Source: Trichinella spiralis
Lineage: Eukaryota
Direction of reading: 5' to 3'
Length of the DNA: 64,000 nt
Assembly: GCF_000181795.1 (NCBI RefSeq)
Contig: NW_003526943.1
Span: 684,487 to 748,486, forward strand
In this document: piece after piece, positions 9,674-59,472 of the stretch
Numbering within the stretch: position 1 is the first letter of the stretch
Layout of the letters: every line of letters starts with the position of its first letter
Translations under genes and position numbers: made by a program
Notes under the pieces: model-generated
The model's database searches: none
Seen by the model: the letters and a program-made list of their open reading frames with translations, nothing else
What the model was told of the DNA's origin: nothing

Positions 9674-10295
9674 CCGGTCAATTTAACAATTATATCAAAT
9701 CATACAATTCTATAGAAATGTAGCGCATATAGTCGTGCATTAATTTCAGGCACTTGACTGATTAAATTTAAATAAAGTAATTGTTCGACAAAGTTCTGTT
9801 TTGATGCCCAAGTAAAGAGCATTCTTTGGCGTTTCGATAAAAACTTGTATGGCTAATGTCGTTTGATTGTAAAACAATAGTTTTTTTGTGTTTTATAGAT
9901 TACTGGTTACAGAATAATGTAACGATTGGTATTTTATTCAAGAAGCACAATTTTATTTGTAATAACAGTATAGCCAATAATGCGTTGTACTTTATTACTG
10001 TACTATATTTTAGCAAAGTTAAATTATAATGCGCCTCTAATAATGGCATTTCATTTGTAAAAATATCATTTGTCACACTACAATAAAAATGAATATAAGT
10101 AATCTTTTCGATGCTTAATTTCTTCTGAAAAAAAAGTTTAAGCGCTCAATTTATAAATATTATTTTTATAACACATTGAGGCACTTTTATTGTGCTTTCA
10201 TTATCAATTTTATTTCAAAAGTATTCAATATATAATTTATTATATTCTGCAAAGTTTATGACATTCTTGTATGTTTCATATAAAATGCTGAAAGA

Positions 10296-13276
10296 TTAAA
10301 ATTTTGAAATAATATCTGTCAGCAACCCTTTTTCACAGTTCATGATTTCCCCGAACCATGAATTTGGTCTGATTGTGTACTCTTCTTCTCCCCCTTCAAA
10401 CAGTAAGCAATCTTTTTCTTGTGTATAATTAAATGCCCTGCAGCTTTGTTCCTTATTAAAAAAGCGACATTTACGGATGCAATCAACAATTGTACTTGAA
10501 TATACTTTCCTCAGCAGTTTCCAACCGCCGACGTTTGAACTTATAAAAAATTCAATGACACAAACTTCTTGGTCTTCTTCTATATAAAATTTTAAAGGCT
10601 CTGGGTTTCCATTTCTTAAATCATATCTGTCTAAAATCAAGAGCAATTCATTTGAGCATCAATTGCAATCGTTTCATATAATACATTAATAATGTGCTTC
10701 AAGGTGAAGATTTTATAAATTTCAAAAATACTAGAAAAATAGTTTTATTTATTTCAGTAATGCATAAAATGAAATTGATCAGCAAATAACATTTGAATAT
10801 CATATTTCTAAGAAGAATTCCATTCCTAAGAAATTATGTGTGCTTTGACAAAGAAATATAATTTCAGTATTAAATTAAACACATTAGAGCAAAGGCATTA
10901 AAATTGAAAGAGATTCTTTAAAATGTTCAAATGCGTATATCAAGTAATTTAACTTTAACATAAACGTTAAACCATAGCATTTAATGAAAAAATTCTAAAA
11001 CCACTAAGAATATCACATACGCTTACCTGAGGTACATTGCCGCAGTTCAATAAGACGCATCTTTAGTCTAGGAAGGCGTCTGGCAGTTCCTTGTGTATTT
11101 AATTCAATTACTGCACATTTGTGAGTAATTCTTGAATACTGAACTGCTCTATAGGGCCACTCAGGTAACATATTGCGACAAAGATGTAAACAGTAATTCA
11201 GTGATCGAACGTTGGTGAAAACATCCTTTACCGCTAACCGCGTGGAGTTGAACGTTTTTAACATTTTAACAATACAAACTTCATAAAAATTATAAAGATT
11301 TACTGCAAATTCTTCCTCGGTGGGTGTAAATGAGATGGGAGGAACTGTTTCATCAATAGAATATTGATCCACATCTTAAAAATTACTTGTCTTATAAGTA
11401 AAAAAGCATAATATTCCATTTTTACTTTATCACAAAATATCTTTAAAAAGTTAAAATTAAAAAAATGTTAAAGCCGTCATATTTAATATGTTACAACATT
11501 ATTAATTAATAAATTAAATCGAATTTCTGCTTAATAAGTCGCAAAATGGTCAGTTAAAAGTGACAACGAAATAACTTTAAGGACAATAAATTTCATTTTA
11601 AATTGCCTTAAATTAACTTTAAAGTGAGCATACCTGCCCTATATTTGCTTTCTTTATTCTAGTTCCCTTATTATTTGGTTAAATCACAGGATTTCTTTAA
11701 ATAAAATCAAAATCTACATATCAACTTCAGTAAAAATTTAATGCAAAACTTTACTCTTTTGCATTTTTTAGATGCTGCATTTTCTTTTAGACGTATTTAA
11801 AAAACTTTTGTGTATATGATATTATTGCTACCTTACGAATATTATAAAACAAAATTTTGATGATGATCAAATTATTAGCAATGGTGAATATTTCATTAAC
11901 TAAAATTATGATTAAAAACATTTTTTCCTGAAATTAGTAATAAAAATTTGAGGTGTATTAACAATCAAAATTAAAATTAAAATCACGTACGTTGAGACTG
12001 TGTCGAAATCACATTTGAAATTCTGAGAAGATATGGAAGGCTCTTATTGCTTGGAATTTCCAAAGTATGTACTTGAATTTCATCTGAAATTTTTTTGCTT
12101 ATTTTCTGTCATACAAAATAATTAGCCATAATTGTTACTAATAATGAGTTGATGAAATTATTTTCATAAGATGAAAATTTGACAACTAAAGTTCGACAAT
12201 TTTAACAATAACTTATTAAAGGAATTGATTTATTAAAATATGCTTAAAATTTTAATGTTGAATTTCAGTTAAAAATAAGTGAATTATAATGTTTCAAATT
12301 TACACTTAATAAATAGCTTAATAACTAAAAATACTTAAGAAATAAATACCTCTAAAACTGAGGTACAAGATGTAAAATGCGGTTCCATTTTCTTCAGCAC
12401 CGGGATAAAGAGTTGGAAATGACGAAAAGGAATAAAAACTACAACTTTTTGTTCCCCTCGTGTAAGTGACAGCATTGCAATTATTAAGCTGACTGGTATG
12501 GTCACAAATGATTACACAACTTTCAGCAGTTGGAGTTGTAAATGTTCGAATAAGCAGAGCATCTGAAAAAACATCTTTCCTTGTTTTTTGGTAAAAATAT
12601 TTTTTCCTATGTCGTTCTGCACTAGAAATATAAACAGTAGAGTCCAGAATACTTTCATCCATATTTGCTGATTCTGCGTTAAGAAGCAAATCAATATTCC
12701 CTACAATTTAATATGAATCTTTGTATTATTTACAATCAAAAGACTAAACTTGAAACAAATTATGATGCAAATATATTAAAGTTATAATTTTCAGGAAATT
12801 TATTTGTTTCAAATTGAAGATCAAACTAATATATACGGATTAGAATTTAATTTTTTTCAAATTACCTCCTTTGCATTCATAGATGAAAACAATGTCCAAA
12901 AACATGTCACCATCTGAATGTAAATCTGACTCTGACACGTTCATTACAAGGCAAGATTGAGTATCAGGAAAATAAAACACTGCATTGCATTCTTTATGAA
13001 AGGAAGCATTTACACATAGTCGAATGCATCTGGCATAGGAAACCCTTGCATGTGCTTCATTAGTACAGTGTTCTATATCACCACGATATCTTGCTGATCC
13101 AAACAGGCATGACAAATTTTCTTCTTCTAAATAGCCACTGAATAGTAGAGCATCGGTTACCTAAAAAAACAAATTATTATTATTAACACTGCAGCATAAA
13201 TAAGCAGTCGCTGAAATACATTTCTTACCAATACTATGGAAAACATCATTAAAAACGTTTCACAGAAGGCTATCAT
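10296..13276 (-). CDS. Secreted protein with four PAN/apple-like domains, paralog A
   Basis: Signal exon MIAFCETFLMMFSIVL (13276-13229) splices to VTDALLFSG. Four exons carry the C..CxxxC..C-x-A-[VF]-x-[YF]..C..C pattern (ORFs 12840, 12318, 11013, 10296), with short linker exons between. Confidence 0.8.
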
Positions 13277-16016
13277 TTTCTAGCAACGCCAAATTTTATT
13301 TTAAACCACTGTGCTTTTTATAGCTTCAATTGGAGAAAAATATTAAAACAGAAATATCAATAAGTTCTCTATGATGACAATACAAATTTATTTTAATTGA
13401 CTGTTGAATAATTGCAAAAGTTTTTATTTTACTTTATATGTTATTTTCAAAAATTGAAAAATCCATGCTGTTTTTAAAGAAGATATGCAGTGCAACAATA
13501 TTGAGCGTTTGGAAGAAATTTGAAAATAAGAAAGATGGGCTTATTGTGAACTTATGAGTGATATTAAATAAACCTTAGTACGCGATAAAAGCAAGTTTTT
13601 TATTGAATATACTCGTATAGTTTGCGTTGGTAAAGAGTGTTTCATGCTGCAACTGTTTTACATGTGCATTTATTGTAGTGGCATTTCACACAAAATTAGC
13701 ACAGAATGCCAGTAATAAACAAATAAGATGGATAAAATAGCAGAGAACATGAGGAAAATTAAGAATCAAAATTATATTTTCTGCTTATTTATTGAAGGCA
13801 ATTTAAGTTGATTAAATAATGCTTATGTAGTTGTTCAGAAATGTGCAAATAAATCACATTATATGTACTTGATTGTATATTTACTTTTGATATTTTGCAA
13901 AAATTTAAAGAAAATTTGCATTAAAATGTAATTCATGTTTAAATTTTAGTTAACGCAAAAAGCAATATTCAAAAGCAGATTTTAATTTTATGATAATTTT
14001 TAAATAGCTACCTAAATATTATTTCATTTTTCAAAAAGTAAATTACCAGACGCAAATAATTAAGAAGAAACTGTTTGTTCAGACAAGTTTATTTAAGACA
14101 GATTTAAAATTTTAATTGTGCTTTACAAATTGACTGATTACCTAGAATACTAAAATTTACTACTATTATTTATTTATTTATTAATATCTTATTAATTATG
14201 AAATGAAATTTTCAATTATACTGCTGCATAAAATCAATATGAATATAAATATTAATGATTATGTAACTGAAATTAATTTATAGCTGAAAAAATGAAAATC
14301 AGGTAGTTAATCATAATTAGAATCAACTATTATTGTAATTTAGGTACATTTTGTTTTAATAACATTATAATTGAGATATTCGTAATGGATAATTTATTTT
14401 GTATTCATTTCGGTAAATGCTAAAAATGAACTTAAAGTTTGAATTTCAAGTAGATATAATGGAAAACAGTCATATGCATGTTAATTTTTAGCCTGTTTAT
14501 ACTTCTGAAATGTTTCACTTTATTTGCGCTTCAGCACTAAAATTCCTAATGAATATCAAAGCTCAGTTACTTAATTCGGTAAATTTTTAACATTTAGATC
14601 CGTATAGTTTTATTGACTTATTCAGAGTTGAAGGTGATAGGCCCCATGATGGATTCTTCGGGTGGAGTTCACCATAGGATGCTTTGTATGTGCTGCACTC
14701 CGTTAATTTTCATTTTTGCGATCTGAAGCTTTGCGAGATTTCCTTTAACACAATATTTCGTGTTTTGAAAAAAAAACTTCTGGTGTTTTAAGAATTTTTA
14801 CTCGGTCTATAGAAGATCGTAAAGTTGAAATGTATATTTTTGAATTCCTGGGGAGGAATCAATCCTAAATCAGAAAAACACGTGCAAAACCTCTGAACGA
14901 TATTGAAGTTTTATGAAATTTGTTTCAGATGGATAGTACTCTGTCAACTGTATGTGTTTCATTCGAAAAATAAGTAATTTTATTAATTTGTAAGCCTTTT
15001 AGTGACCAAAAATTTTTGAGTTTTTTTAGACTAATTTTTGCAATATTTCTCAACAAAAGGATAGTTTTTAGTGCAATACGCTATTATGCATTTTTTTGAA
15101 ATTGCAAATGTGGTTTACAGCTATTTTGTGACAACGTTTTTAAGGTTTCACATGCACATATGGACAACTGTTACAAAAGAAAATTATATTTCACATTGAT
15201 GCACGAATCATAACAATGCGCTTTGGTGCAGTGTGTTGCTCTGCGTGGGTGTGGCTGCATTACATACATGGACCTCTACACGTCCAGATTGAAACATCGG
15301 AAAGTCAGAACGTACCCTAATAGAATGTGGCAAAACTTCTGTAGACAGCATTCTTCTCAGACATCCTGCCAGTCCGCCGCATGCCCTCTCTTATCCAGTA
15401 AGAAAAGACACTGAATTTAGGGGTGCAGCGACGACAATAAAGCGGTCAGGAGCGGAGGCGATCAAAAAAGTATCCAAAAAGGTGTGACTTTTGCGGCAGG
15501 AAGAAAGACCCAAAAGTCGGCACTTGTTGCAGCAAGTGTAAAACTCCGTGTTGCAATGATCACTTTTACATTTTTTGTTAAAATTACTTTGATAAACTTG
15601 GCGTGTCCAAATAAACGTGCATCGACAGTATTTCAAATAATCAATTTTTAATGCAGATAAATATATATGCAATGATTGTAATAATATCTATTAAAATAAA
15701 AAAGTAATGTGAAATATCGATTTTATCTTCAACACATGTCCATAAAAAACTGAAAAAGTAGTCAGCAAAAGATGCGCTGTTGCAAGCCGAAAATATTGCT
15801 GGAAACTCCACTTTTATTTCAAAAAATGCGAAACATCATAGTGCACTGAAAGCTATCATTTATTTCAGAAATATAACAAAAATTACTCTGGCATGTAAAG
15901 AAAACTGACCTTAGCATACTTTTAAGAAAAAAGACTGCAAGCAACTTTTAAAAAATATTGATGAATTCATTTTTAAAGGTTAGAAGATTTTTTATCAGTT
16001 TAAGAGTTAGTAATGA

Positions 16017-18449
16017 TCAGAAACTTTGGATGAGGTCTGTTAAATCGCCCTCTTCACAGTATAACATTTCTCCGAGAAGAGTGTTAGCGGGTTTGATTAA
16101 ATTCATGCCGAACAGATTGGTTTTCCCCAAAACAATGCATTCTTTGTCCATTGTGAAAAGAAAAGCTGAGCAAATTGAACTGTATTGTTCAATGCGACAC
16201 AAAGAAATACACTGATCAATACTTTGCGTATTATTTATCAATTTAATTTTATAGAAATCAGATGTGCAGTTATTCCTGTAAAACTCTACCACACAGATTT
16301 CTTTAGTTTCTTTAACATAAAATTTTAAAAGTTCCGGATTGTGTAATCGTTCTTCAAAGCGATCTGAAATAATAATAATAATGATAATAATAATAATGCA
16401 CTGACTACTGCTTATATTAGTTTTAAAAATTAATTATTCCGTGAAAAAGTTAGTACTTCAATATTCAAAACTTTTACCAAGGTAACAATGGCCGAGTTCA
16501 ATAAAAATCTCATCATTGTTGAAGTTATACTCGTCGATACCAAGTCCAGTAGCAATTACCGTGCACGATTTGTTAGATTTTGAATATAAAACTGCACGAT
16601 AAGGCCAATTGCTTATAGATGCCCGACACAGTTCTAAGCATTTGTTTGCGGATCGCACATTTGCATGCGTTCGCAGAGGAAATATGCCATCAGGAGTGTA
16701 TATGCTGGTGATGCGAATCTCGCAGCTTTCAAAAAATGTTGGAATGTTAACTTCCATTTTCACTTCATCATAAATAAATTGTTGATCAAATGAACTTGCA
16801 TTCAGTTCTTTTTCGCTGATCTTTTTCAAATCACCTATCTCTACTTTGGTTTTGTTTGCTTAAAAATGTACTTTTCACATTACTCAAATCAATTAATTCG
16901 TACATTCCATTTTTTATTGGTTAGCTTTTCTCATTTACAAAACGCTTATGCACAAAACTGAATTAAAATTCATTAAATTATTAAAATTATATCAATAATT
17001 TAGTAAAATGCTGCTTTATTTATATTACTGTGAATTTATGAATTTATTTTGACATAAATTTATGTTTTCATAACTGAACTACAAAATTATTCTTGATAGC
17101 AAAATAGTGCGTGCTGAGACTTAGAAAACTTACGACTTTAAAGTAAAAGAGTTGTAAATTTCAAAAAGTTTTCAAATATGACATTGGTGAAGTTATACTG
17201 ATTTTTAAAAAAATGTTATTTTTAATTCCACTTACTTAAAGGTGAAAATAGGTAAAATTTTTCACGTTTATGGCCGGTGATAGGTATATTTAAACTTTGT
17301 GTTCTTTCAGACGAACTAAAGCGCTTATATTCCAAATTATTTTTTGCCACTTCAATGCTGGATACAAAAAAATTTTCTAAAACAATGCTTCATTGTTAAT
17401 ATTATTACTAACATTATTATTATTATTATTATTGAGCAAACCACAAACATACAATTTGAAGATAAATATGACAATCAATAAAAAATCATAAATAATAAAT
17501 GTAAAAAACTGATTACCATCAAAACAGAAGTGCAAAAATATCAAGGTATCATCATTTTCGTCACGAATTTCAGTTAAATTATTCGTATATTGTAAACTGT
17601 AAAGTGTACAATTTATATTGTACAAAACTGCATTGCAAGTGCCTTTTATTCGACATTTGAAAATACATAATTCCAGTGATAAGTGTGGGATTTTATCAAT
17701 ATACGTTACATTTGACAGATCTAATGGATTTTTTATTTCTATAATGCATGTTTCTTTCCATAATGTTGATCTTATAAAGTCAATTTCAAATTCAGCTGCT
17801 ATGTTGACAAAATTATCAGTATCCAAGCTATAATAATAACCTAAAAATGTCTATACTGAAAATTAAATTTATTAATTTAAATTTTTCATTTACAAGAAGC
17901 ATTTTTAAAATAAAATTACAATACAAAATTACATTTATAAATAAATTTCCAAAAAGTATTGTGTAGCATATGTGCATAGAGTAGAATGCAAAAGTAAAAC
18001 ATATTTATTTCTTTTAAAAACTTTAAGATGTAACTTTCTAAATAATTTATGATGCACTTACCATTTTCACATTTCTGTATAACAAAAGTCCTTTCATCAA
18101 GATTTTTAAGAGCAACATTGTCAGTTGTCGCTTCATCTGAATAGTGCAAAATACAAGCAACAACGTGATTTAATGAAGAAACTTTATTGCATCTATGCTC
18201 TGCCATTAATTCATTGCATAATTTAATGCACTTTCCCAAAGACAATTCTGTCATCACTACAGAATTTGGCTCATCTTCAAAAGGAACCACATTTAGCAAA
18301 CATGTCATATCTACATCTGGGAAATATGCAATGATGCGGTTGCATTCAGTAATCTATAATAAAATATCACACGAGACTGTTTTTTCGAAATTACCTATGT
18401 TTACCGAAGTGTTGAATGCGACAATTAACCAGAATATTACTGCTTTCAT
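16017..18449 (-). CDS. Secreted 4xPAN/apple protein, paralog B
   Basis: Signal exon MKAVIFWLIVAFNTS followed by domain exons at ORFs 17916, 17377, 16458 and 16017. WPYRAV motif in domain 3; ends GDLTDLIQSF*. Confidence 0.8.
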
Positions 18450-19687
18450 TTTATTTCTTAATTGGAAACATCTAAATAAAATTGCAATTAAAACTAAAAT
18501 AAGGTTTTATTCTAATTTCATTTATAAGACTAGCTGAAAATTTAATACACTAATTAGTGTGAAATATCATGAAATTTTCGCGTTAATTCGCAATTAGCTA
18601 ATTTAACTTACTATTAAAAGTTGTTCAGTTATGCAGTAGCATTTTCCAAATAAGTAAATACCATATGAATTGAAATAATAAAGAAAGTTCCTCCTTCAAT
18701 TTATTTTTAGCAAACAGGATTTTTAAAAGTTAAAAGCTATATTTTTCAGAATTATTATAATTATACATCATTGCATATATGTTGAATGCATATATGTTGC
18801 ATGTGCGAATGTTGCATATATATGCTTTCTGTATCCTCATTCAGTAAATAATTGCTGCTACATTAGAAATTTCATAATTAATACCTTTAAATCTTTGCAA
18901 ATAAATCCAGAAAGTATCCAATAAGATATATTAATAATTAGAGTTTGTTAACATTAAGCTTCAAGAAATTATCTGCATGCTTATTATTAATTGATGCTGT
19001 TTCCAACTGAAAAAGCAAATAGCACTTTTACACACAATTCACTAATACATATATGGTAATAATTTTAATTTAATTACATGATTTAAATTCAAAAGTGAAA
19101 GAAAAAGGAACTGTGAAACAATTTGCACTACTTTCATTTCTGTTGCAAAATATCTGCAAAACAGAAGCTTTAATTTTCAAAATTTATATTCAGCGGCGTA
19201 AAAGTCGACCAAAAATTAATCATAATGTATATATTAATGACTCCTTTACTGTATGAATAAAAGCCAATTGTCTATCTGAGTCGTCTCTTGCCACAGGTCC
19301 TTTTACGAGATCACAGAGAAGGGTAGTTTGATTCACATTATTACTCCACATTACATACCTTTACTGTTACTCCATATCTTCTTATTTTTGCTCGTCTATT
19401 CTAAATGAACATTCTATTCCTATCATAAGCATATCATACGTTGAGTGAATGACTTCTTTGAGGACTCAGTGCCACCATATGATAAAACAGCACATAGTCT
19501 TTTTAAAACTGTTGGAAATATAAAATACCAATAACCATTTACTTTCAATAGGAATATATATATATATGCACATGTAAAATATTAATTTTCAACGGACAAT
19601 TATTTATTATTATCAACTTTAATGGAATGGAATTTTCACTGAAAATAGATAAAAATATGAAAATACACAAACATGCATCAGGCACTT

Positions 19688-22535
19688 CTAAAATGGCTGA
19701 AATTCATCTGTTAAGCAGCCTGGTTTGCACACTAGTACTTCACCGAATACAGATTTTCGCAAAGTTCGATAGCTTGCTCGTCTGTAGAATTTTTTCAAAA
19801 GACGACATTTTCCATCTACAGCAAAATTTATCGCTGAACACTGATCTCTATTATCATAATGACGGCACCATGACAAACATTCAATAATATTAGTTGCATT
19901 CATTATATAATTAATTGTTTTCCAATGATTCAGAAAGATTTTTCGATAAAATTCAACAAGGCATACTTCACGTTGACTTTTTATATAAAATACTAATGCG
20001 TCTGGATTGTTAGCACGGTCGTATCTTCGATCTAAAAAGTGATTCTATAATTTTCTGAAATCAAAAGTTAATAAAAATTTAGGGCGGGGTTTGCATTCAA
20101 ATAATTATGATGTTCATTAAAATTTCACAAAAATTCTTGTTTTTAATTATATAATTCTTAAGCAAAACTTTTTCCTATATTATAAAACCAATAAACTGGA
20201 TAACTGTTTGTTTGTTTACCAGTAAAGCATGTTTGAAGTTCGACAAACTGCTCATCTGCCTCCAGTGTGACATTCACAGACGTTTCGTTACTTTTCACAT
20301 AAATATGGCAATATTTTTTCTCTGAAGAATAGTGGACAGCCCGATATGGCCATTCGCTAATAGCATGTCGACACTTGTGCAGGCATGTATTCAATGAATT
20401 TACTCTTAGATGACTTTCATGAAGAATGAGATTTTTTATACTTCTGGGGTCGACTATTTTTATTTTGCATATTTCAAAGAACTCGTAAAGATTAGCTGTA
20501 AGAAAAACACTTCTTGAACCAAAGCTTGCAATATATTTCATCCATTCGGACCCTCTGCTGCCTAAAATGATTCAATATTGATTACTTTTTTGAAATGCAA
20601 ACGTATTCAAATTATCTTAGATTGAAATACAATTTTTGAAGTTTAAACACTATTTCTGCTCTTCAAATAAAATAAGCCAGTGCTAATAAATTTTATAATT
20701 ATTCTTTTTTTAAAATCATTTCTAAATTGCTCATAATCAAAAATATGATGAACTGTATACATATAATTAAAATTAAATCAAATACTGTGCCTATACGTGC
20801 ATTTCTAAAAGATGAACAATATAATTGTCTAAATTTAGAAGTCATAATTAAGATGCAAATAATTTATTCGCATTAAATTTTCATCAACTGTTTCTTATTT
20901 TATTTATTTATCAAGATATATTTTTTATTGTTTGTTTTCTAATATGAAATATGATTGCATTACTGAAAGGTTGTCTTTCAAAATCTTCTGATACAATGCC
21001 GTGTTGTTCAGGAGTAATTTCAGTTGAACATTCAAAGTTGAAATTTGTCCCTTTAATTATTTCAATGGAGATAACTTCTATAGAAACTAAAACAATAGCA
21101 TAAATATAAAAAGCATATCGGCAAATATATTGTTCATTCTAAAATATTTTTGACCAAATTGAATTTATATATTAATTCTCATGAAGTTTCAAGAAAAAAT
21201 AATGATTTTTGATTTTATGGAATAGTGTTGTTTATTGTTATCTATAATAGTAATGCGCACATTATTAATTGTTCGTCATTTTAAGTGAATATTTATATAT
21301 TTTTAAAGTGATGAAACACACAAAATTTCTTACTATCCAAGCATAAGAAGACTGAATAAAATTTTGTTGAAGAAGATTCAACACTACTTCTTTGAAGTCC
21401 TGGAACATAATCATGATACAAAATGCAATCTCCAGTTTTCAAGGAATAGGATACTGCGTTGCAGTGGGCAAAAGAACTCCACTGTTGGCAAAAATAAATA
21501 CATGAGAACAAACTGCTCGAAGTAATGTTTCGAAATGCGATAGCATTTTTCGTTTCTTTTAGTGAACGCTGTTCCAAATAACAAATCTGACTAACATCAT
21601 GCAGTACAACATAACTTTTTAAAGTATCGAAATTATGGCTTTTCCTTTGAATTTTTTCATCATTTAACAAATTCTTTTTCCCTAAAATATTATAAAAAAT
21701 CTCACTGATATTAGTTGTGTAAATTTGTAAAATAATTCCATTTAAAGTTGCATGAACTGAATGATTTTTTTGAAATTATTAAATATAAAAATTGTGAAAT
21801 TTATTTTTATATGATTTTAATTATTAATCTCTAAAGCTTTTATTCAAAAAATATTGATATTTGAATCTCTTGGTAATTAAATTAAGATACTTTAGATATC
21901 ATTAACATGGGTGTTATGCAAAATAAATTTAAATTTTTTCAAGTATTTGTAAAAGTGTTTTTGTTTATTTTAAACACTGCAATGAAATTCTTAATGTTAA
22001 ATATTCATATTAATTATTTCACTCATTAATAAATGGGGTGAATTATTAAAGCTTATTTGAAACTTAAATAATAGATTTTTAAATAAATAAATATTTATAT
22101 ATTGTTATAAAAGTATACCATAAAGCGTATAATTACCAAATGCACATTTATGTATAAAGTAATACAAATAACGGTGTTCTTCATCAGTGTCTTCAAAAGG
22201 GCCTTCTTGTTGTTCAATAAAATAACAAATTAGCTTTGATTTGGAAAAATATATTTCATTACAAAAACCGCTTTGGTTACGCAAATAGCATGCAACAATG
22301 CAGTCAGTGAGGGTGCTGAGAGGAAGCTTTTCTAAAACTGATGTTTCATTTTGCTTCAAATGACGATGTTCTAACAAACATGAGAGATTCTCCTCAGAAA
22401 AATACGTTACAAACCGTGTCTGCTCAGATGTCTTTAAAAATAAGATTTTCAAAAATACATTAAGACTATTACAGTTCAACATACCGTCGAAAAAAGACCA
22501 ATGATCAGAATTACATGCATTTGATATGAAACCAT
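19688..22535 (-). CDS. Secreted 4xPAN/apple protein, paralog C
   Basis: Signal exon MVSYQMHVILIIGLFST followed by domain exons at ORFs 22105, 21293, 20158 and 19688. WPYRAV motif; ends GCLTDEFQPF*. Confidence 0.8.
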
Positions 22536-23202
22536 TTTTTAAACCTATAAAACTGTAACTACAACACCAGAAATACTGTCGCGCTTAAATAGCATTCATT
22601 TGTATTTGCTTTGCATACCAAATAATTTGCCTAGCTCAACAGTTAGCTTAACTATCGTAAAAGTAAAGAATTTATTCATGTTTGCCATTTAATTTCCAAT
22701 TTTTGAAAAGTTTCAAAATTAATTACTTCATAAATAAACAATAACGATAATTAATTAAATTGTTTTCGTACTGCAGTTAAAGAATAATTAATAAGGAAAA
22801 TATGATTTTGAAAGTCTAAATTATCAAATTCTTAATAAAATTTCATACAGCCAGTTTATTGTATTCTATAAGTAAAAATTAGGTAAATTTTACTGATATT
22901 TTATATGTATGAAATTCATAAACAGAATGTGAATTCATCATTTATGTTTGTAATGCTGAAAAGTTTGATATTTGTAAATTAAATTAAAAATTTTTTAAAC
23001 TTTATATATTGGTTGAAATATGAAATATTTCATTAATTTAGTTTTTATTAAAGAACTTATTTTTTTCTCCTGTTTAATATGCAAATTGAATATATTATAG
23101 CAAGTCATAGTCAAACAACATTTTAAAAAATATTTATCATTCACTTTTTAATTAATTTCAATTAATTAAAAATATTCACTTTATAAATAGCAAAAATGTT
23201 TG

Positions 23203-25755
23203 TCAGTATGGGAGCAGTTCATCAGTGAGCATTCCATATTTGCACATCAACAATTCAGCAAAAATGGTATCCTGCTGTAGCTTTATATCATTAGAAAACG
23301 AATCTTTTCTAAAAAGTGAGCATTCACTGTTCGTTCCAAAACCTACAGCCAAGCAATCTTCAGTAAAGCGCTTAAATAAGCATTCTAACATGCATTTCTT
23401 TAAATTTGTAGTATTTGATATTTTTCCAATTAATGACCACATTGATAATTCTCTGCCTTTGTAAAATTCAACAACACAAACTTTCCCGAGTTCTTCAAAA
23501 AATATATTCAGAGGTTCTGGATTGTTAATTCTTTCATATTCTCTATCTAAATAAAATAAATTGGAAATTTTTTCATTAATTTTTGCTTATTTTGAATTTA
23601 TTATACTAAAGAATGCTGAAGCTAAAGGCATAAAACAGTTGGCAAGAAATCAAAAATATTAAATATCACTAAAGTAATATCATTTTGAAATAATTTACTT
23701 TATAAATTTTTTTCCATTAATGAAATTAAGCGTTGAAAGATTTTAAGTAATTACCTTTGAAGCAATTATACAGTTTAATCATTTTCTGTTCTTCATCTGA
23801 TAATATACTACTACCATTTGCATTTTTGGTGTACAGTTCACAAATTTTCTTTTCTTTATGATAAACAACTGCACGAAATACCCAGTTTAATCCTGTACTA
23901 AGACAGTGATGCATGCACATATTTAATGACAATACTGAATGTATTCTTGAATGAAGTTTAAATTCTTTTGCTTCGGAGAAACTCATCTGCATAGCATTGC
24001 ATTGAATATGAAAATGAAATATGTGCACTATTTCTTCATTATTTTCCAGTTCACTTGCATTATAATCATTATAAAAAGGAATAAAATCTAAAAATGCAAA
24101 GTGCGTTTTAAACTGGCATCTTCATCAAAGAATTTCATTATTTATCTGATTTATCATCATTAATTTTTATATAATAATGCATATATGCACAAACTCGGTT
24201 AAAAATTAAAATCCTATTCTACAATATTATTATATTAACTTTCACATTTTATACTAACATTAAATCATTGCATAAAATAATAGCGTTTTCTGTTTTCCCT
24301 TAGCACATCTTAACATACTGCATAAAAAATTGAAATGTTATTCTGTAAAAACAAATATTGGCAACATTGATTTAAATTTATCTACCTTCGTCTGGTGCAC
24401 GAAATGAAAGAGTGTGCCTATTTCCATAACTGTCAGTCAGCAGAATAGTAGTTACACTTACTGCATCTATAAGTTAATACTATAAAGCAAATTTTAAATT
24501 ATATTAAAATATAAAAAAGAAAACAATTATTTTACTTTAAATAAGAGATGACTGAAAAAAATATATAAATATTTGTTTTATGTTAATCGTCATTTCTAAT
24601 TGAATAGTGGTTTTTTTGTTTTTCTAAAAGTTACTTTTAAAGATATGGAATAAAAAGAAACATATCTACCATCTATACAGCCAAGCATTAAGTAAAATTC
24701 ACTGTATTCTTCCTGCGTTGATACGGAAATTCTGTCGTCAATTTCAGAATGGTAAAGTATGCAGGTATTCTCTTCAGCCATAAAAGAAATTGCATTACAT
24801 GAATTTCTGACATGGCAATAATATGCACACAAATCGTTATTCATTGAAAATTCTTGGCCAATAAAAGTTGAATTCATTGCAAGTGATAACGACTGCTGTT
24901 CAAGATAGCAATTTAACTTGAATAGAGGTAGGTGTACTTTATTTACACTGTTCGACGTGGCATTTGTTGAGACAATACCATTTGATGCTTAAAAATGTAC
25001 TTTTTCAATTTCTTAAAAAAATTCACTAAAAATCTATTCTTTTATTTTAATTTTATACAAATCAAAATCAAATATGAACATTAATATTTTAAAATTCTTT
25101 TTTGATTCAAGTCAGAGAAATATAAGTTTTGTTTATACAAAGGAAAATTTTCATTAACTGCATAATGAATAATGAAAGTACATTTTAAAGCATTATTGAT
25201 TTGTTTTCATAAAAATTTATTAAAACAGTCTGTTTATAATATTTATGTTCCTTTGCAATTTATTTTGACTGTAATTTTTAAAATAGAAACTCAAGTTTCT
25301 GTTTATAGCTCAGTTGCTGAATTTCATTTAAACATTCTTACCTAAATCACACTTCTGAATGTAATAAAGAAATTTTCCATTATTTTTTCTTAAATCAGAT
25401 CCTGCTTGTATCTTATATGTTAAGTGATAGCAAACATTTCTTTCATCCATTGCATTATGAACGTAATACACTGAATTGCAAGGATTGTTTGCTTCATTGC
25501 ATTTTGCAATACATTCACCCACTGTAGTTGTGAACATGCTGCTTAAAACTTCAGAATGATTGTCCAGTGGTTTGCTTTCCAATAAGCAAAGCATATTTTC
25601 TTCATAAAAGTTGCTAGTAAATAACATTTGTTTCACATTCTAAATATTTATTATTCAGTCTAAAAGTGATAATACATAAATACATTTAATTGTAATCATT
25701 TATTACTCACTTGAAAAATAGAAATAAAAATTAGCTTCTGAAAAATTTTCATCAT
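23203..25755 (-). CDS. Secreted 4xPAN/apple protein, paralog D
   Basis: Leader exon MMKIFQKLIFISIFQ followed by domain exons at ORFs 25328, 24596, 23726 and 23203. WVFRAV motif; ends GMLTDELLPY*. Confidence 0.8.
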
Positions 25756-26174: not shown

Positions 26175-27828
26175 CCCTAATCTGGGCACCTGTCTACATA
26201 TGTAGACAAACAATGTTTGGAACAATGCTGTGACATGAAAAAATAATTAGCCTTATTCATTCCACAACTTTTGATAAAATTTTGTGGTCTATCTTCACAG
26301 CTAATTTTTTGGTTCTAAGACGTTTTTAAGCTGTTGTTTCATGTTTACTATTCATATTCCGGGCACTTGTCTACGTATGTAAACACATAACACTTTCTCT
26401 TTTTTTGATGATTATACTGAAATAATCCACATCTTTGACTATTTTTGAATGTGGTTCACGTTCGTGTGCTTTATGGAATCTGGGATAAAGTTTCTGTGGA
26501 TTTTATAGAGTAGATTAGTCAAAAAGGGTGTCAACCCCAAAGATAAATACGGTATGCTTCATGAGTGTCTGTCAGTGCTTTCAGACCTTCTTGATGTTTG
26601 TTGAAGAGCCACTGCTATTAGCTCAATATGCAACAAAAACAGCCAGTTGTTTATGGCAGCTTTAAAAAGTGGATGAGCGATATCCATTATGCAGCTATTC
26701 ATTGCTATAAATAATCGGTTGCGGTGAACTTGTGATTGCCACTTTTGCATTTTACCATACGTATTGACCATTTGACCATTTGACCAGGAAAGTACGGTGT
26801 GAAGATCAACTGGATATGTGACGCGGAGAATGGTTATGCTCTGAAATATTTGTTATATGCTGGCAGAAGTCGTGAAGAACGTCACATTGGTCTTGCAGGC
26901 ACCAATGTTAGGCAATTGGCACAGCCGTTTGTGAACTCTAACAAAAACGTTTTTATGGACCGTTATTTTGCATCATATTCCATTGCGCAACATCTTCTTG
27001 AGCATGATCTTACAGCTATTGGTTTGCTATTGTCGTGATGTTCTAGCATGTTTAAGTAAAGCAGCACGGCGTGACCTTTACTGTACATTAGCTGTTTATG
27101 AGCAAAACAGAAAAGTAATGATGATCAATTACGTGCCAAGGAAAAACAACAATGTTCTTCTGTTGACTTCATGCCACGCAAAGTTCAAAATAGACGACCA
27201 GTGAGGTGTGACAAAAGACCAAACATCATAAATGACTATAATCTGGGCAAAGGATGCGTGGATAGCATGGATGCAAGAATAGAAGATTTTTGCTATAAAA
27301 AAAGACCAACAGATACACCATACTGATGTTGTACTTCATTGTTGAGGTGTGCATCAACAACGCATTCTTACTGATGAAACATCAGCAAAGATAAAAAAGC
27401 GTTTTATGAGAGAGCTTTCAGCTGGTCAAACACATCGAAATGAGGTATCAAAATGAAAAAATCTGTGCACAAACTAAACATGCCTTCATCCGTTACAGAC
27501 TGCTCCAAAATTATAAATGTTACAGATATGAGATATAAAACGATAAAATCCATCAAAATGCTGAATGCCTGGACGTCGAAAATCAGTGTAAAACTGCTGC
27601 CATTCATGTAAAAAAAAATATATACTTAGCAGCCATAAAATCACTAAAATATCGTGTAGCGCTTGCATTGAATAAAATAAATAATCTATTTGTGAAATTA
27701 TAATTGGTTCTTGAAAAAATAATCATTTTAACATCATGTAAAAGGATTAAACATGATGAAACTTCTTCTGTCTACATATGTAGACAGGTGCCCGGATTAA
27801 GGTGTAAAATTTGCCGCCCGGATGAGGG
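26175..27828 (+). mobile_element. Defective piggyBac DNA transposon
   Basis: TTAA|CCCT...AGGG|TTAA ends, with inverted terminal repeats containing the palindrome TGTCTACATATGTAGACA. Frameshifted transposase fragments read PGKYGVKINWICDAENGY, VFMDRYF and YNLGKGCVDSMD. Confidence 0.93.
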
Positions 27829-36163: not shown

Positions 36164-36389
36164 GCTGAATAGTACAAAAAATAATGCGAATTATTTCTAA
36201 CAACAGGTTTTCTTAATTTGGGTATGAAATGATTTGCAAAGCTTTAGTCATTCACTGAACAAACACCAAGTCCCTTATTAGCATTTATTTGTGAACAATT
36301 AGCATACGAAATTACAGATAATTCTAATTTGACAGAAAGATGCAGTCAAATTATTGCATATTTTATCTCAGCAGTATAACTTTGGCGTG

Positions 36390-36453
36390 AAATAATGTGG
36401 TCAAGTTTCAACACTGGGGGGTTTTTGTAGTTAACCAGTGTCATCGGACCACT
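36390..36453 (-). ncRNA. Y RNA-like gene, copy 1 (terminator degenerate; possibly a pseudogene)
   Basis: AGUGGUCCGAUGACACUGGUUAACUACAAAAACCCCCCAGUGUUGAAACUUGACCACAUUAUUU. It has the GGUC(C)GA/UUGACC bulged helix and an 8-bp upper stem GACACUGG/CCAGUGUU. Confidence 0.75.
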
Positions 36454-36475
36454 GATAGTAGCTTTCCAGTCATGC

Positions 36476-36517
36476 TATTAAAACAGTATAAATTAAATAC
36501 GAATGTTTAATTGGGTT
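36476..36517 (-). promoter_or_regulatory. Putative type-3 Pol III promoter (TATA-like plus PSE-like) of Y RNA-like copy 1
   Basis: TTTTAATA at about -30 to -23 and AACCCAATTAAACATTCGTATTTA at about -64 to -41. Both are shared with copy 2. Confidence 0.55.
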
Positions 36518-36627
36518 GGAAAGAAATTAATTTGTAAAATATAATTGCAGAATTAAAATTATTTTAAAACATTACACATAGTAGAATTCTAAAATATATA
36601 CTCTAAAGTGTATTACTAATTATTTAT

Positions 36628-38462
36628 GGGATAGTCTCTCTCGGTATAATTTTTGTGATTGCGTTCCTATTGGTTGGCAAAACGCCTGTTTCTCATTGGA
36701 TAGCTTCTGATTCCATAGCTATTGCGTAATTCCATTGGGCGTGTCACCTAAACTTTTCATTGATTGAAATTTTTCTTCTCTGATAAGCTACAATTCTTTT
36801 TTATTTCATTGGCCCAAATTTTTGATTGCATAACAACATAGCATTTGACCTGGAATTTGACAGTGGAATTTTTTCATTGTTTACAGCTGTTTCTCCTTTT
36901 AAATATTTACTTTTCCACTTTGTGCTTTTTGTGATTAGTATTTGGAATATTATTTAAAGAACATTTCTATGTTTTACTGTTATGCTAGCCATCTGAAGTT
37001 TAATTTTTTGAAGTCAATTTTTCTAAATAAAATTTACTTTTCAATGCTCAACAACAACAATATCAGTAGTAAATAACAGAGAATAACGTGAATAATTAAT
37101 AACAGTGTCAATAAGAAACAATAAAAAATAAAGTGAATAATAAACAACAGCAAATAACAGATAATAACAACAATGATAATAAAATATTATACAAAAATTA
37201 TTATACAAAACCACCACTTGGAAGGCGGCATTAAATCGGCTCTGGAGTGAGGTATATCAAAGCTTCAAGAAACCGCTCGAAGGTACGCCTGCCGCTGGTG
37301 TATTCACCCATATAGATCATAACCCGTCGTTGCTTTTCCGCTTACTTATTGTTTTTTTGTCTAATGGAACCAGCCACAGGATTTCTTGAGAGCAGCTGAT
37401 TAACTAGCGTTTCCATCACGCCTTGTTCTTCTTTAAGAAAATGCTGTTGAGCCGATTATGCCAGCCTCACTCTGCGTCAGCAGAAACGTTTTCCAAGATT
37501 TTGTTCTTGTAAATTCAGGTCCTAGAACAAGATCCTGATGATCTCTGGGAAGTCTGGGGAAACGTTTCGCCCGTTGGTTATACATGGCATTTCTGACTTC
37601 TCTAAAGAACGGAAATTGGGCAGATGTTGATGGTTCAGCAGAGACAGCTGCGGCTTCTTTATCATAGATTTGCGGGATGGTCTTCGCTTCTTCCGCACTC
37701 CGCTTTTTTAAAATGGCCCTTTTTTCCATTCTGTAGGCCGTGTGTTCATCCACTGAACAATCGTCACCATGGGGAGTCCGCTTGATCGCCGCTGTCACAT
37801 CCAGGTTGGTGGTTACTCCACCTTTGCCCCCCTTTTTTATACTGTACCAAAACAGAACGAATTCTTAATAACAAAGTACATATTTAATATTTTCAAAGCA
37901 CATACCTCGGAACATCCCCAATTTTCACCCGTTTTCCAGTATATGCCTGTATAGCAATTTGTATGCCCTGCCTTCATACACAAGGGACGTACCACCACGA
38001 CGATTTGTTGCAAGACGTAACTTAACTCAGCCATCACGAATTAGCCTGCTGTTGGCTGTTCTTTACTGTTGTTGTTGCTGCTGTCGGGTAGTGAAAAATA
38101 AAAATCACTATCTAACTTATTTTTTGTATTGTTTTTTCTGAATTATTACTATCGCATTTGATATAACGTCACTTTGGCACAATAAAATATAGAATAATGA
38201 TAAAAATTATTTTCAGGAATGCTGATCATAAAGAAGTATAAACTTCACCACAAATAATATATTTAAATAAACAAAATTTCAATGAATGACGAAACTTCAA
38301 ACAGACACAATAAAGTTTTGGAATTATATTTCCATTTTTTATGTTACGGATATTTGCTAAATGGGATATTTGAACCAATGAAATGAAAAAATATTACAGC
38401 TAATCACAACGGAAAAATTTCAATTAATGAGCAATTAGACAAGGAAAACCAATACGACGTAA
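36628..38462 (-). mobile_element. Defective Mutator-like (FLYWCH/MULE) element
   Basis: Transposase fragments NRRGGTSLVYEGRAYKL, RMEKRAILKKRSAEE..IPQIYD and AMYNQRAKRFPRLP. Degenerate long inverted repeats pair 36758-36822 with about 38368-38431. Outer boundaries are approximate. Confidence 0.8.
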
Positions 38463-53444: not shown

Positions 53445-54542
53445 ATCGTAGAATTTTATCGAATTCTTTTAAGTCATTAATTTATTTTTTGAATTTTTTA
53501 AAGAAAATTTTGTTTTGCTGATAAAGCGCTTTTCAACTGGTGCATTAAATTAGCTACTTACATTTTTTGGAAATTATTTAAGATTTATCTGAAATCTTAC
53601 TTTTTTCAGATCTTGAATAAAGCAATTATATTGTAACGAGTGGCTTCTCTGTTCAAGATTTTTGTATCTTCACGTTCTGTATTATCCAGTTTTATTCTAT
53701 TAATTATTATTGTTATTTAGTATTCAAAAAGAACTAATGTACGTTTCCTGTTAGAAATATACTTTATAAACGATAGATATTTAAATAAAATTTAACAATG
53801 CGAATAAATTCAAAATTTATGCAAAAGTATGCAAACGTTTTGAATGTATAAAAAGTGAATTCTTAGTAATATTTGTGTTGTATCATTCAAAATCTATAAA
53901 ATTCAAATGCATTCATTGCAAAAGTAAATCCACACTCTTTCTTCTCTCTGATTCTGTATTGATATTTCTGTTATATATTTTTCTTCAGCATTTCGTTATT
54001 AATATTATTCTTTAAGTAATCAAATCGGCTTTGTTCTAATCGAATAACACTGCTGCTAGAATCGACATGATTAAAATACTATAAAATAAGGCGTGATTAA
54101 TGTGATGCGTTAAATATACTTGAAAATCTTTAACTTACCATAACAGTGTGAACTGTTTATCAATTTAGTAAATTTTATTCGACGGATTAAATTGTATGTT
54201 TGCAGTAGTTGTATTTTTATGTTAGTATTTATGTGTGGCATAATGTATTGGGCGATGATATTTTTGTTTATAATTTGGTCATCCGATTTGACAATTTCAA
54301 TATCTGAATTTTTTTCCATCTTTTAAAATAGCAGTCAATTTTTCTGTATTTTTAAAGGAATGTAAATTTTGCAATTTTTTAATGTAAATTCATGTGAATT
54401 TCATTATAAAATATGCTAATAGCTGTTACTGGGATTTACATTATTTCTAATTTTAATGCATTTACAGCTCTTACAATATCAAAATTGAACATTACTCAAA
54501 ACTGAATTGTATACTTCTTATTTTAGAAAATTTGTAATCACA

Positions 54543-55658: not shown

Positions 55659-56670
55659 AATACAAAATTTTCATGTTTAGCTTTATTACGAAAAAGCTGT
55701 CGTGTCTTATAGTTTTTACACAGCATGTAAAAGTATAATATATGTTCTGTGCAAGCAGTAAATTTCCGAAATGAAATTAGCATTGTGACAGAAACAAATC
55801 ATACAAATAATGAAGTAAATAATGAGAAATGAAAAGAGAATTAATGAATCTTAAAAAATTATTAGAACATAATCAAATAACAGTTAATATGGAATATAAA
55901 TTGTTGACATCAAACATCATGTGGCGGCAGATAGATGGCAACTGAGAAAATGTGAAAGTTGAAATTAACATTTTACTGCAGAAAAAAATGAATTACAAAT
56001 AACAGATAAATGAAAAATAGAAACGTGAAAGCAATTCAATAATAAAACAGTTAATCAATGCTAGAATTTTTACAATATAAATGTTTGCGGTGAGTAAAGC
56101 TAAAAAACGAACGTCTTGCTTAGAATTTGAATATGCAGTTGTCGTATACATCTGATATACAGAATATACATGTCAGCTTGGACTGATTGGCACTGTTAAC
56201 GGATGTTGACTTATATAAAGCAATAAAATCAAAATTTCCTTTTTTTCATGAATAGAACGCACTGATTTTTTCAACTGCATATATTTACTGTCACTTTTGA
56301 CAACTTTGTAATTTAGTTGCCATCTGCATTATTCTCATAATCAGCGTTTTCTGCTCAGCCAATAAGGTTTGGATGAAGTGAGAGTAATGTAGCCATAAAA
56401 TTGAAGCTAACTGTAAAATTTCATTTTATTGTTTGTTTTGTTAGCTCCTCATTTATTAAGATGATTACCTGCCATAAAATGTTTATTTAGCAAAATTTTA
56501 CAAGAAACAAAAATGGGGCACAGATTAATAAAAGTCATTTACCCAACACAACCACTAAGCCTATTATTAACATTTATTTCCAAAAAATTAGCAAACAAAA
56601 CTACACATAATTCCAGTTTGACAGCAAAATTACTGAATGATTCATTTTAGCAGTACAACTTTGCGTGTGG

Positions 56671-56736
56671 AAAAAGTGGTCAAGATTCGACACTGGGGGG
56701 ATTTCATGTTAAGTTAACCAGTGCCATCGGACCACC
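56671..56736 (-). ncRNA. Y RNA-like gene, copy 2 (intact)
   Basis: GGUGGUCCGAUGGCACUGGUUAACUUAACAUGAAAUCCCCCCAGUGUCGAAUCUUGACCACUUUUU. The 5' and 3' ends pair with a single bulged C, followed by an internal loop, the upper stem GGCACUGG/CCAGUGUC, a loop with a C-run and a T5 terminator. Confidence 0.85.
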
Positions 56737-56759
56737 GATTGTATGTTTTTCAAAAGTAC

Positions 56760-56802
56760 TATTAAAAGAGTCTTTGATAAATACGAATGTTCAATTGGGT
56801 TT
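56760..56802 (-). promoter_or_regulatory. Putative type-3 Pol III promoter of Y RNA-like copy 2
   Basis: TTTTAATA at -31 to -24 and AAACCCAATTGAACATTCGTATTTA at about -66 to -42. Confidence 0.6.
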
Positions 56803-56974
56803 AAAAGAAATGAATTTATAAAATATAATTGCATAATTAATATTATTTAAAAATATTCAACATAATAAAATTGAAAAATGAATATTTTTAAATATAATAT
56901 TCATTATTTTTATTATAAACTTCTCACAAACAAGATAAAAATTTTCACTAAATCACTGCAACAATGAAATAAAT

Positions 56975-58460
56975 TGTCGTGGATTATAACGATCAGCCAG
57001 AAAAAAGAGAGAAAGAGAGTCGGTGCGCATCATAGGAAAATAGACAACAATAATATTATTAGTTAAAATAAGGATAATGTAGGTGAGGGCACTCAGGTAC
57101 ATTGCGTACTATTGTCCCTATACACTCCCACTCAAAAATCAGGTAATTTTTGAAACGGTAGGTGGAAAATGACACGCTTTCGTTCTGGGCGGCCGGTGTT
57201 GGGTTGACGTGGTTGGATATGATGAACGTCAGCTTCGTTCTGCTGATGGCGACCTGGGAGATGACTCCTTCGTTGTCGATGGTGATCACCTTGTCAGACC
57301 TGTCAAGCACTCTGTACGGACCAGAGTGGAATGGCGCCAAGCTGTTTGTCCTGTTGGTCTCTTGCACAGAAACATGGCTGTACAAATGGGTTCTAGACGC
57401 CATGCCTTTGCCTCGTTGGCCGGAAATGGCGCATCGCCGTTCTGAGTGCCTCTGCGAACGCCGACGGGTCGCTGCAAGAGGTGGTGCGTCGCCCACGAAG
57501 AAATCGGCGGGTAAGCGCAAGACCGAGCCGTACAACACTTCCGTTGTCAAGCAGTTGATGTCTTCTTTTAACGCCGTTCCCAACAATTATCCCCATATTT
57601 CCAACAATACCAGCGGTAGTATCGTCGTCCACTTGACCCCGGCGCTGTGCATGTCAGCAATCAGGGATGCCTTGGGGTGGCGGTGGAACCGCTCTATGAT
57701 GCCATTGGCTTGCGGGTGATAGGAGGAGGCCGAGATGTGTTGGCAGCTCAGCATTTTGCTGAGTGGGGACCATGTATGCGAGCAGAACTGCCGATCTCTG
57801 TATGGAATGTTGAACAGCTTTATCAATCACTACTATTTCTTGTTGATAACTATTATCCATTTCTTGCACCGCCGCATACAGCGCCTTTGATCGCATGTCT
57901 TCTGCCATCTGCGACAAATATCCTCTCATGTCAGAACCTAACGTGATCGGACCATATAAACTATCCAGGCCTACACCACGTGGATGACCAACTTCGAGCT
58001 GGTGGCATCTTAAATTAATTTTTTAAATTTGATAATCACAATTAAAAATTAAATGAGTATTAAAATGAGAGGCTGGCATTATGTTGGACGGATGGCACCA
58101 CACTTAACACGTTGGCCGTCGCTGGTCTTGGGTGGGCCGTTGGGGATAAGAAGCGGCGTCGGTGGTCAGCTGCCGGCTGGTCGTGGCATTGTATGAACTC
58201 ATCGTCGATTCGGCATCACGATCTCCAATTCACATATGGCCAACACGTGTTCCCAGTCAACTGTCAGGTTTTGATGAATAGAAATGAAGCAACTGTAGCG
58301 CTCATTGCTTTATCTTCTGTCTCACGCCCACGAATAAAATGATGCAATCGTAACGCCTTTTGCAACATCTAATTCGCTGAACGCATGGTGGAGCTCTGGC
58401 AAGGTAACTGATTTGGATGATTAGTTGCGCGAGTTTTGAAATGAGATGACAGCTTATGCC
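56975..58460 (-). mobile_element. Degenerate Ty3/gypsy LTR retrotransposon (integrase remnant plus 3' LTR)
   Basis: Integrase motifs SYHPQANGIIERFHR, WTTILPLVLL, LYGSVLRLP and GPYRV. Polypurine tract GAGTGGGAG (57133-57125) is followed by a TGT...ACA LTR (57124-56975). RT/RNaseH appears deleted. The 5' boundary is approximate. Confidence 0.88.
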
Positions 58461-59472
58461 TATGCTATTCCGACACACCCAGGAGTCTAAGAATAGGATG
58501 GAATTTCAAAGAAAATTTTGCTGTAATTTTTATAATTATTACTGTTTCAGTTTTTTTCGTATTATTTTTTAATAACTCTGCTAGTCTGCTTTCTTGGTTG
58601 TGGTGTTCTTGTTTCTTGGTTGTCTCTTTGGTTGTGGGTGTGACAATTCTATTATACAACAGTATTTTTAAAACTTTTAATTGTTATATGAATTAATTTT
58701 ATAGAATTCGTTAAATTCAATGTTTTGTAATATTTCGAATTTCTTTCAAAAATATTTGGAAGTTAATAAAGCACTTTTTACTTTGTGCATTAAATTCACT
58801 ACTTTGATTTCTTAGTTAAATCATTTACGATTTATCTGCCATTTTTCTAAAGATATTGAATAAAGCAATATTATTGCAACGAATGACTTTCTGCTTCTAT
58901 TATTTTCGTCATTTTTCTTTCTTCTTCCTTGACATTCACTACCTAACTTTACTTTTCTACGGTAGTTATTTATTTTCTTCATCATGTTACTTTTTTAATT
59001 ATTGCTATAATTCATTTATTTTAAAGCAACCATATGTTTTATATTAAACCTTTCCTTTTTAAGCAAAAGTTTTTTTAATTAAGCAAGCAAATAATGCAAA
59101 ACGTATTCAAAAATATTGCAAATTCTATGTGCACAAACAATAATTTTAAATAATATTTTAAAATAAATTTATTAAAATATCATTTTATTTTATTTTATTT
59201 TATTTTATTAATAACTATATAATGTTTTAAATTATTTTAAAACTGACTTTTCAATACCCCAAATTAAAACCTGTGCAACATTTAAAATGCTTGAAAATCT
59301 TTAATTGGAGTATACAGTATGGCATCTTTCTGTCAATTTGTCAATATCAGTCAATTTTGGTCATCTTACCATTTTTTTTGTTTTCTTTGCTTTTTCCTAT
59401 AGCGAATTATTTATAATTTTAAATTATTTTTCTGCATATTACAGTTTTTGGCATATTATTATTATCATCCCG

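Follow-up and report, generated by a model that had tools for sequence, protein, structure and literature searches.

The stretch of Trichinella spiralis DNA analysed here, 64,000 nt long and hereafter called the window, carries on its minus strand a 66-nt sequence (copy A) that we read as a Trichinella gene, likely functional, for a Y RNA of the stem-bulge family, accompanied by a decayed paralog (copy B); the probability of this reading is put at roughly 0.83. Judged by its sequence, copy A ranks with the ordinary short RNAs of the Y/stem-bulge RNA (sbRNA) family and is not a vertebrate-like oddity, and it is apparently the first member of this family from clade I nematodes. The RNA family is a known one, and no new kind of system is involved. 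The 66 nt are identical to those quoted in the initial annotation of this DNA, to which copy B and the upstream blocks shared by the two copies are additions (Table 1).

Table 1. Positions of copy A, copy B and their associated elements within the window
Feature	Position	Strand	Basis or remark
Copy A, predicted Y/sbRNA-family RNA, 66 nt	56671..56736	-	Fold, Rfam, relatives, RNA reads of run X10
Copy A, lower (Ro-type) helix	56730-56736 with 56675-56681	-	Fold
Copy A, unpaired C (C8)	56729	-	Fold
Copy A, upper stem	56718-56725 with 56689-56696	-	Fold
Copy A, loop motif UUAAC	56713-56717	-	Sequence
Copy A, T5 run, predicted Pol III terminator and U tail	56671..56675	-	First run of at least four T past the predicted start
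Copy A, TATA-like block TTTTAATAG, -31 to -23	56759..56767	-	Identical in copies A and B; putative function, from position
Copy A, PSE-like block, -63 to -48	56784..56799	-	15/16 identical to copy B; putative function, from position
Copy B, paralog with both stems kept, likely pseudogene or read-through gene	36392..36453	-	Helix pattern; Rfam, 18.4 bits
Copy B, upstream blocks (TATA-like 36475-36483, PSE-like 36500-36515)	36475..36515	-	Shared with copy A
Unit of about 380 bp around copy A, duplicated at 36246-36625	56533..56909		76% identity; gene, upstream blocks and downstream flank

Copy A has a minimum free energy (MFE) of -21.3 kcal/mol (z -3.1), and equally good folds were obtained in 2 of 200 shuffles. 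Its terminal helix contains the 7 bp expected of a Y RNA or sbRNA (positions 1-7 with 56-62 of the RNA, pair probabilities 0.75-1.0). The upper stem has eight firm pairs, one of them G-U (probabilities 0.97-1.0), and a ninth, U-G, appears in the consensus of the two copies; both ends of this stem are G-C and its centre consists of U17-A43 and G18-C42, which is the arrangement of the family (about 9 bp, GC clamps and a UG-CA core), although CUG-CAG stands in place of the strict A/GUG-CAC/U triplet. A T5 run, corresponding to the oligo-U end of these RNAs, lies directly 3' of the helix in copy A and in two of the other organisms described below (A and C), and is absent in copy B. The loop opens with UUAAC, one base off UUA(U/C)C; this motif does not vary between the two copies, nor in those organisms that have a contig across it. 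The initial annotation had described this fold correctly as to the terminal helix, the unpaired C, the 8-bp upper stem with one G-U and the U5 tail; its register with a single bulged C (G9-U55, A10-U54) is not that of the MFE structure, as it reaches only -17.2 kcal/mol in copy A (pair probability 0.03) and -16.0 against -17.8 kcal/mol in copy B (0.18). C8 is unpaired in every fold, the MFE structure of copy A places it in a 1x2 loop, and for the region above it the registers differ between the two Rfam models. Copy A overlaps no ORF of at least 80 codons, and no tRNA was found by ARAGORN.

The best Rfam match of copy A is Y_RNA (RF00019), at 25.4 bits and with E-values of 0.018 in 1.4 kb and 0.002 in 171 bp (local searches), followed by the nematode sbRNA model (RF01656) at 13.6 bits; copy B likewise matches Y_RNA best, at 18.4 bits. 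The gathering score is 38 for both families, and a search of the whole 64-kb window at the gathering threshold gave no match. Because both cut-offs are missed, copy A is not filed under either entry and is a member of neither RF00019 nor RF01656 as curated; with a score below the cut-off, the locus is therefore overlooked by automated annotation. The Rfam comparison proposed in the initial annotation placed Y_RNA before sbRNA, with both below 38 bits. The assignment to the Y RNAs is upheld by the Y_RNA model being the best match of both copies and by the motifs of the family, which follow one another in the proper order: GGUCCGA, an upper stem with UG-CA, UUAxC, a C-run, CUUGACC and a U tail. 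The pattern GGTCCGA-N30-60-TTGACC occurs twice in the window and in none of 100 shuffles, the two matches being paralogs that count as one event. A looser family descriptor, composed with the sequence already known, matches both copies and nothing else in the window, and finds a match in 2 of 300 shuffled windows. A single match of the 8-bp-stem pattern in a metagenome (L002:300-374, in GC-rich DNA) was discarded as a chance hit; its upper stem is unpaired and it has no Rfam match.

Nematode sbRNAs were compared through a 240-row alignment (Boria 2010 set, as in SMORE supplement S1). In the available portion of this alignment, the row prefixes stand for Caenorhabditis species, Pp, Hc, Ac, Mh and Mi, with none from clade I and none for Trichinella or Trichuris. 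The statement of the initial annotation that these RNAs are described mainly from clade V holds for clade V and leaves out clade IV, which is also represented (PMC4450293, accessible text). The aligned sbRNAs of that portion share with copy A the GGUCCG lower helix with an unpaired C, the CUUGACC 3' strand and the U tail, as well as the upper stem with UG-CA and GC clamps, the UUAxC that opens the loop and the C-run before the 3' strand of the upper stem. Among these rows, the short sbRNAs CeN77, Cb5 and Cn15 are closest, together with the Meloidogyne RNAs Mh2, Mi6 and Mi8; CeN77 and Cb5 are about 70 nt long by hand count. The CUG/CAG variant of copy A is found in the Meloidogyne sbRNAs Mh2, Mi6 and Mi8, its UUAAC in Pp2, and GGUCCGAUG in Mi1, Cr28 and Cn26, while Hc4 has the same 3' end, CUUGACCAC followed by U's. 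Local duplicates are a further feature in common. Copy A differs in its clade I host, in having eight rather than nine firm upper-stem pairs, in its GGUCCGA where GGUCCGG is the commoner form, and in that only two copies were seen, in contrast to sbRNA arrays.

With vertebrate Y RNAs, copy A shares the GGUCCGA strand, the 7-bp helix with an unpaired C and possibly an opposite bulge, the U tail and a putative promoter layout of the upstream type. However, human Y RNAs are 84-112 nt long, and copy A has CUG/CAG instead of GUG/CAC, UUGACC instead of UUGACU, and an unstructured loop. Since its size and loop resemble those of short nematode sbRNAs, the terms 'vertebrate-like' and 'unusually compact' that had been applied to it are overstated: GGUCCGAUG, the UUAAC of Pp2 and the 3' end of Hc4 are nematode features, and CeN77 and Cb5 are of nearly the same length. 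The upper stem had also been described as a reversed motif (CAC/GUG). Aligned on the loop motif, CUG/CAG sits at the GUG/CAC position and the central UG-CA is kept, and the reversal is therefore a mis-register. This UG-CA core is the part of the upper stem that was mutated by Kowalski 2015 (PMC4450293, accessible text).

The C. elegans CeY RNA, partner of ROP-1, also resembles copy A in its GGUCCGA + UUGACC helix and its U tail. CeY is without the conserved upper-stem features and gave no replication support in vitro; copy A is much shorter and has UG-CA and a UUAxC-like motif. The GGUCCGA strand is contacted by Xenopus Ro60 (in the accessible part of PMC4201824). According to the accessible part of PMC4726728, CeY was present in C. 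elegans ROP-1 immunoprecipitates and sbRNAs were mostly not found there despite their helix, so that the helix is no guarantee of Ro60 binding. That copy A has the GGUCCGA of CeY counts in favour of such binding.

Copy B belongs to a duplicated unit that has no terminal inverted repeats and whose possible target-site repeats are AT-rich 7-8-mers only. Six of the seven pairs of the terminal helix are kept in copy B, and the two differences between the upper stems of A and B are both one-sided and pair-keeping, with no two-sided compensatory change. Identity between the copies amounts to 44/48 in the arms and 62/70 in the interval from -110 to -41, whereas the remaining flank bins reach 166/227, counted over ungapped columns; Fisher P is 0.005 for the arms and 0.009 for the interval, the bins having been set after viewing. 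In the loop, 8 of 13 columns are identical. The downstream flank of the unit is duplicated too, at about 75% identity, and part of the similarity between the paralogs is therefore plain shared ancestry. No T4 run follows in copy B until +273, and this copy is probably decayed. It probably arose by DNA duplication of the gene together with its promoter, and its terminator has likely decayed.

The initial annotation had taken the sequence for a Y RNA, a class transcribed by Pol III. In both copies, the predicted start is a purine preceded by C, and the two upstream blocks are spaced as would be expected for Pol III promoters of type 3. Human Y genes have type 3 promoters. In the model that we propose, SNAPc and TBP would recognise the blocks at -63 and -31, and Pol III would start at the purine after C at 56736 and stop in the T5 run to yield a 66-nt RNA, the U tail of which would be bound by La. 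By contacting the GGUCCGA strand, Ro60 would be gated or tethered by the RNA during RNA quality control. We infer from these features that the blocks act as a promoter, that Pol III transcribes the gene and that its RNA binds Ro60; provided that the gene is real, the step of Ro60 contact and gating appears reasonably probable. A role in the initiation of replication, as for sbRNAs, is possible because the upper stem retains the UG-CA core and GC clamps, and is considered less likely.

The partner proteins of this model are present in the organism. Tsp_11511 is assigned to KEGG K11089, which we take to be Ro60. The available portion of an acetylome table for T. spiralis (PMC5768625) gives it as E5SPR6/Tsp_11511, a protein that contains TROVE and vWA domains and for which six acetylated peptides were detected by mass spectrometry; La is found in the same portion of the table as Tsp_01639. 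Compared by eye with human and Xenopus Ro60, four of the six Tsp_11511 peptides resemble stretches that follow one another in the same order. An expressed Ro60 ortholog, which the strict definition of a Y RNA calls for, is present in T. spiralis, in line with the Ro60 particle that had been predicted for this lineage. Other searches for Ro proteins gave nothing from animals: a phage Ro protein query returned bacterial, phage or unnamed proteins only, among the 120 matches listed; an Atlas search with a Ro query returned no animal cluster among the matches listed; and the supplements of a Trichuris suis paper contained 0 matches for Ro terms.

Conservation was followed in sequencing runs. Twenty runs were listed, nine of which contain part or all of the stretch, none of these nine being recorded as RNA; eight of the 20 were examined. 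Runs X15 and X18, which comprise 9 and 3 contig records, respectively, gave no match, and this weighs neither for nor against the gene. Contigs from three further organisms (A, B and C) cover the locus. In organism A (56478-56824), 16 listed substitutions (17 in the piece table) and 4 indels were counted, none of them inside the 66 nt, the nearest changes lying at 56669 and 56741. The TATA-like block of this organism carries no listed substitution, with differences at 56753, 56756, 56769 and 56776, and its PSE-like block differs at 2 of 16 positions. Organism C (56440-56729) has 10 substitutions, one of them within the unit at the first base of the tail; as 56670 has changed too, T5 persists, displaced by one base. 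The single difference in organism B (56573-56718) lies outside the unit. Uncorrected P values are 0.031 for organism A (0.013 including indels) and 0.12-0.36 for organism C. As the runs were chosen by exact 31-mers, which in simulation raises the P of organism A to 0.094, the conservation of copy A is suggestive and not proven. The contigs of X2 and X3 start within the predicted RNA, 18 and 7 nt from its 5' end, respectively, and extend downstream. Read-through is a possible source, but X1 extends 88 nt upstream of that end, and neither contig was counted as evidence. In a 3-million-letter run (X7), also not counted, a contig at 56365-56988 is centred on the gene and is the only long one within 3 kb; X7-X9, which come from one sample, all contain the stretch and may reflect enrichment of active promoters, the runs having been selected by the stretch itself.

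RNA reads were sought in a raw RNA-seq run (X10), in which 4 of 11,002,848 records (about 18% of the run) match the 600 bp around copy A. All four, at least 99% alike, start or end at 56673, extend no farther than about 56725-56729 and leave the flanks empty; they form two pairs, perhaps from one molecule. The first mates are on the plus strand, which fits a minus-strand RNA in most stranded libraries, the strandedness of this one not being on record. Each read ends at 56673, inside the U tract, where it is joined to about 94 unrelated letters, and part of this loose end had no match in the window beyond chance. The junction may have originated as a library chimera or as an RNA ligation product. 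It is read as a chimera that formed at the RNA 3' end and not as a third genomic copy, because in a DNA run (X4) the unit is spanned by a single unbroken contig. In that run, the summed depth over 56551-56750 equals the depth of this single contig among the pieces listed, so no near-identical copies were found there. The contig of copy B was matched in X4 by its upstream part alone and its core was missed; diverged paralogs can therefore escape detection.

It could be supposed that neither copy is more than a dead or barely active duplicate, the working Y/sbRNA gene lying elsewhere in the genome. The lack of a terminator in copy B, the position of copy A amid scrambled remnants of a duplicated transporter gene and beside a GC-rich insert, and the match of just four RNA reads all favour this possibility, and diverged paralogs can hide, given that the DNA-run comparison missed even the core of copy B. 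However, the start context, T5 and the two upstream blocks are all retained in copy A; no change falls within the 66 nt in organism A, whose flanks do differ, and T5 persists through two changes in organism C. A 151-nt paired library would in any case be expected to yield few reads from an RNA of only 66 nt. A pair of dead duplicates is therefore regarded as improbable. The unit might instead be a Helitron end or another non-autonomous repeat (MITE or SINE), or a GC-rich hairpin that arose by chance in a small segmental duplication. This would agree with the occurrence of two 380-bp units inside 20 kb and with an Rfam score under the threshold, and it is nonetheless highly unlikely. Terminal inverted repeats are lacking, the target-site candidates are confined to the AT-rich 7-8-mers, and the depth in X4 is that of one contig with no near-identical copies; identity is highest in the stems and the upstream block rather than at the ends of the unit, and the motif set is rare in shuffles. 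The initial annotation had itself named four findings that would count against a Y RNA, namely no discrete transcript, no conservation of the helix relative to its flanks, no Ro60 ortholog, and copies in hundreds as in a MITE or SINE. None of the four was encountered, the transcript and conservation tests being weak ones; as to the last, neither near-identical extra copies nor a convincing target-site duplication was seen.

Pre-miRNAs typically lack a stem interrupted in this manner and a 21-nt loop. The stem of copy A is broken by an asymmetric loop and capped by 21 nt, and this makes a microRNA precursor, or any other small RNA with an snRNA-type promoter that became Y-like by convergence, a very doubtful alternative, even though a hairpin of about 66 nt would suit it and the upstream blocks would suit any SNAPc-driven gene. 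Convergence would also have to deliver five separate Y/sbRNA motifs in the correct order. For an SL-like RNA in particular, no Sm-type site is found 3' of the hairpin and the X10 reads are unspliced across the unit, and the SL-RNA reading was dropped on these grounds. Least probable of all is the acquisition of the gene from a Y RNA of the vertebrate host. The worm makes its home in host muscle cells and the vertebrate-type model scores higher than the nematode one (25.4 versus 13.6 bits), but short RNAs are penalised by the nematode model, which has 130 positions; moreover, in its 3' strand and loop copy A agrees with nematode sbRNAs and not with the RF00019 consensus, GGUCCGAUG is present in nematode sbRNAs, and the locus is common to four organisms.

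Y RNAs outside vertebrates are hard to find. In T. spiralis, the family was reported as not described, BLAST of small-RNA libraries with human and C. elegans queries did not detect a Y RNA, and in the absence of a sequence a Y RNA could not be excluded from the secreted RNA (Taylor 2020, PMC7445429). The accessible text of three other publications (White 2020, on T. muris vesicles; Britton 2019; Buck 2014) gives Y RNA sequences only for H. polygyrus. Our search of the openly accessible literature found no description of a clade I Y RNA, and six motifs used as exact strings gave no literature match.

A functional Y RNA gene at copy A would supply the T. spiralis sequence that was missing in the study of Taylor 2020, and would carry the range of the Y/sbRNA family beyond clades IV-V into clade I, hence to the nematode root. 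It could serve as a probe for existing secreted-RNA data and as a seed for the search of Y RNAs in Trichuris and other invertebrates, and its upstream blocks are candidate promoter elements for small-RNA genes of clade I. It is also a natural minimal RNA with which to examine the features needed for Ro60 binding and for replication activity. More tentatively, and rather against our expectation, copy A could be a single working minimal and undivided Y RNA, in which Ro60 binding and a replication-type upper stem are combined in one 66-nt molecule, and which represents the ancestral nematode state. If so, this undivided state would predate the separation of CeY, which binds Ro, from the many redundant sbRNAs, and the debated role of Y RNAs in replication would become directly testable with one non-redundant gene. 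Since larvae release unprotected small RNAs within host muscle cells, the RNA of copy A might even reach the Ro60 of the host, which we consider very improbable.

The neighbourhood of the two copies agrees with the clade I-like host that had been suggested for this DNA. A 1175-codon ORF at 40294-43821 encodes RPC1, the largest subunit of Pol III, and is 100% identical to a T. spiralis record and 57% to Trichuris muris; the window is therefore clade I nematode DNA. The RPC1 stretch (40276-43821) is uninterrupted and has 41-46% GC, against 24-35% in most of the window; a few kb upstream, and in head-to-head orientation to it, is copy B. Upstream of copy B, a cluster of CCAAT-type words occupies 36640-36830, and 36757-36819 matches 38368-38430 in inverted orientation (79%), possibly as promoter elements or a small repeat. 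Copy A is situated about 1 kb past the end of the NDUFB5 gene, which is on the opposite strand, amid the remnants of a duplicated nucleotide-sugar transporter gene. The originals of this transporter gene are at 52380-53651 and its scrambled duplicates at 56179-56303, 58003-58095 and 58508-58893. At 57059-58400 lies a GC-rich insert whose ORF fragments look retroelement-like by eye, Pfam giving 0 matches in three of its ORFs.

Farther away, four similar blocks of exon-sized ORFs at 9900-25650 (minus strand) seem to be tandem PAN/apple-domain genes; of two ORFs scanned, the one at 12321-12707 matches PAN_1 and the one at 21296-21775 has no match. A DDE transposase fragment (PF13843) was found at 26784-27204, with an inverted pair of repeats (26174-26208/27769-27803) and a direct pair (27786-27832/28123-28169) nearby.
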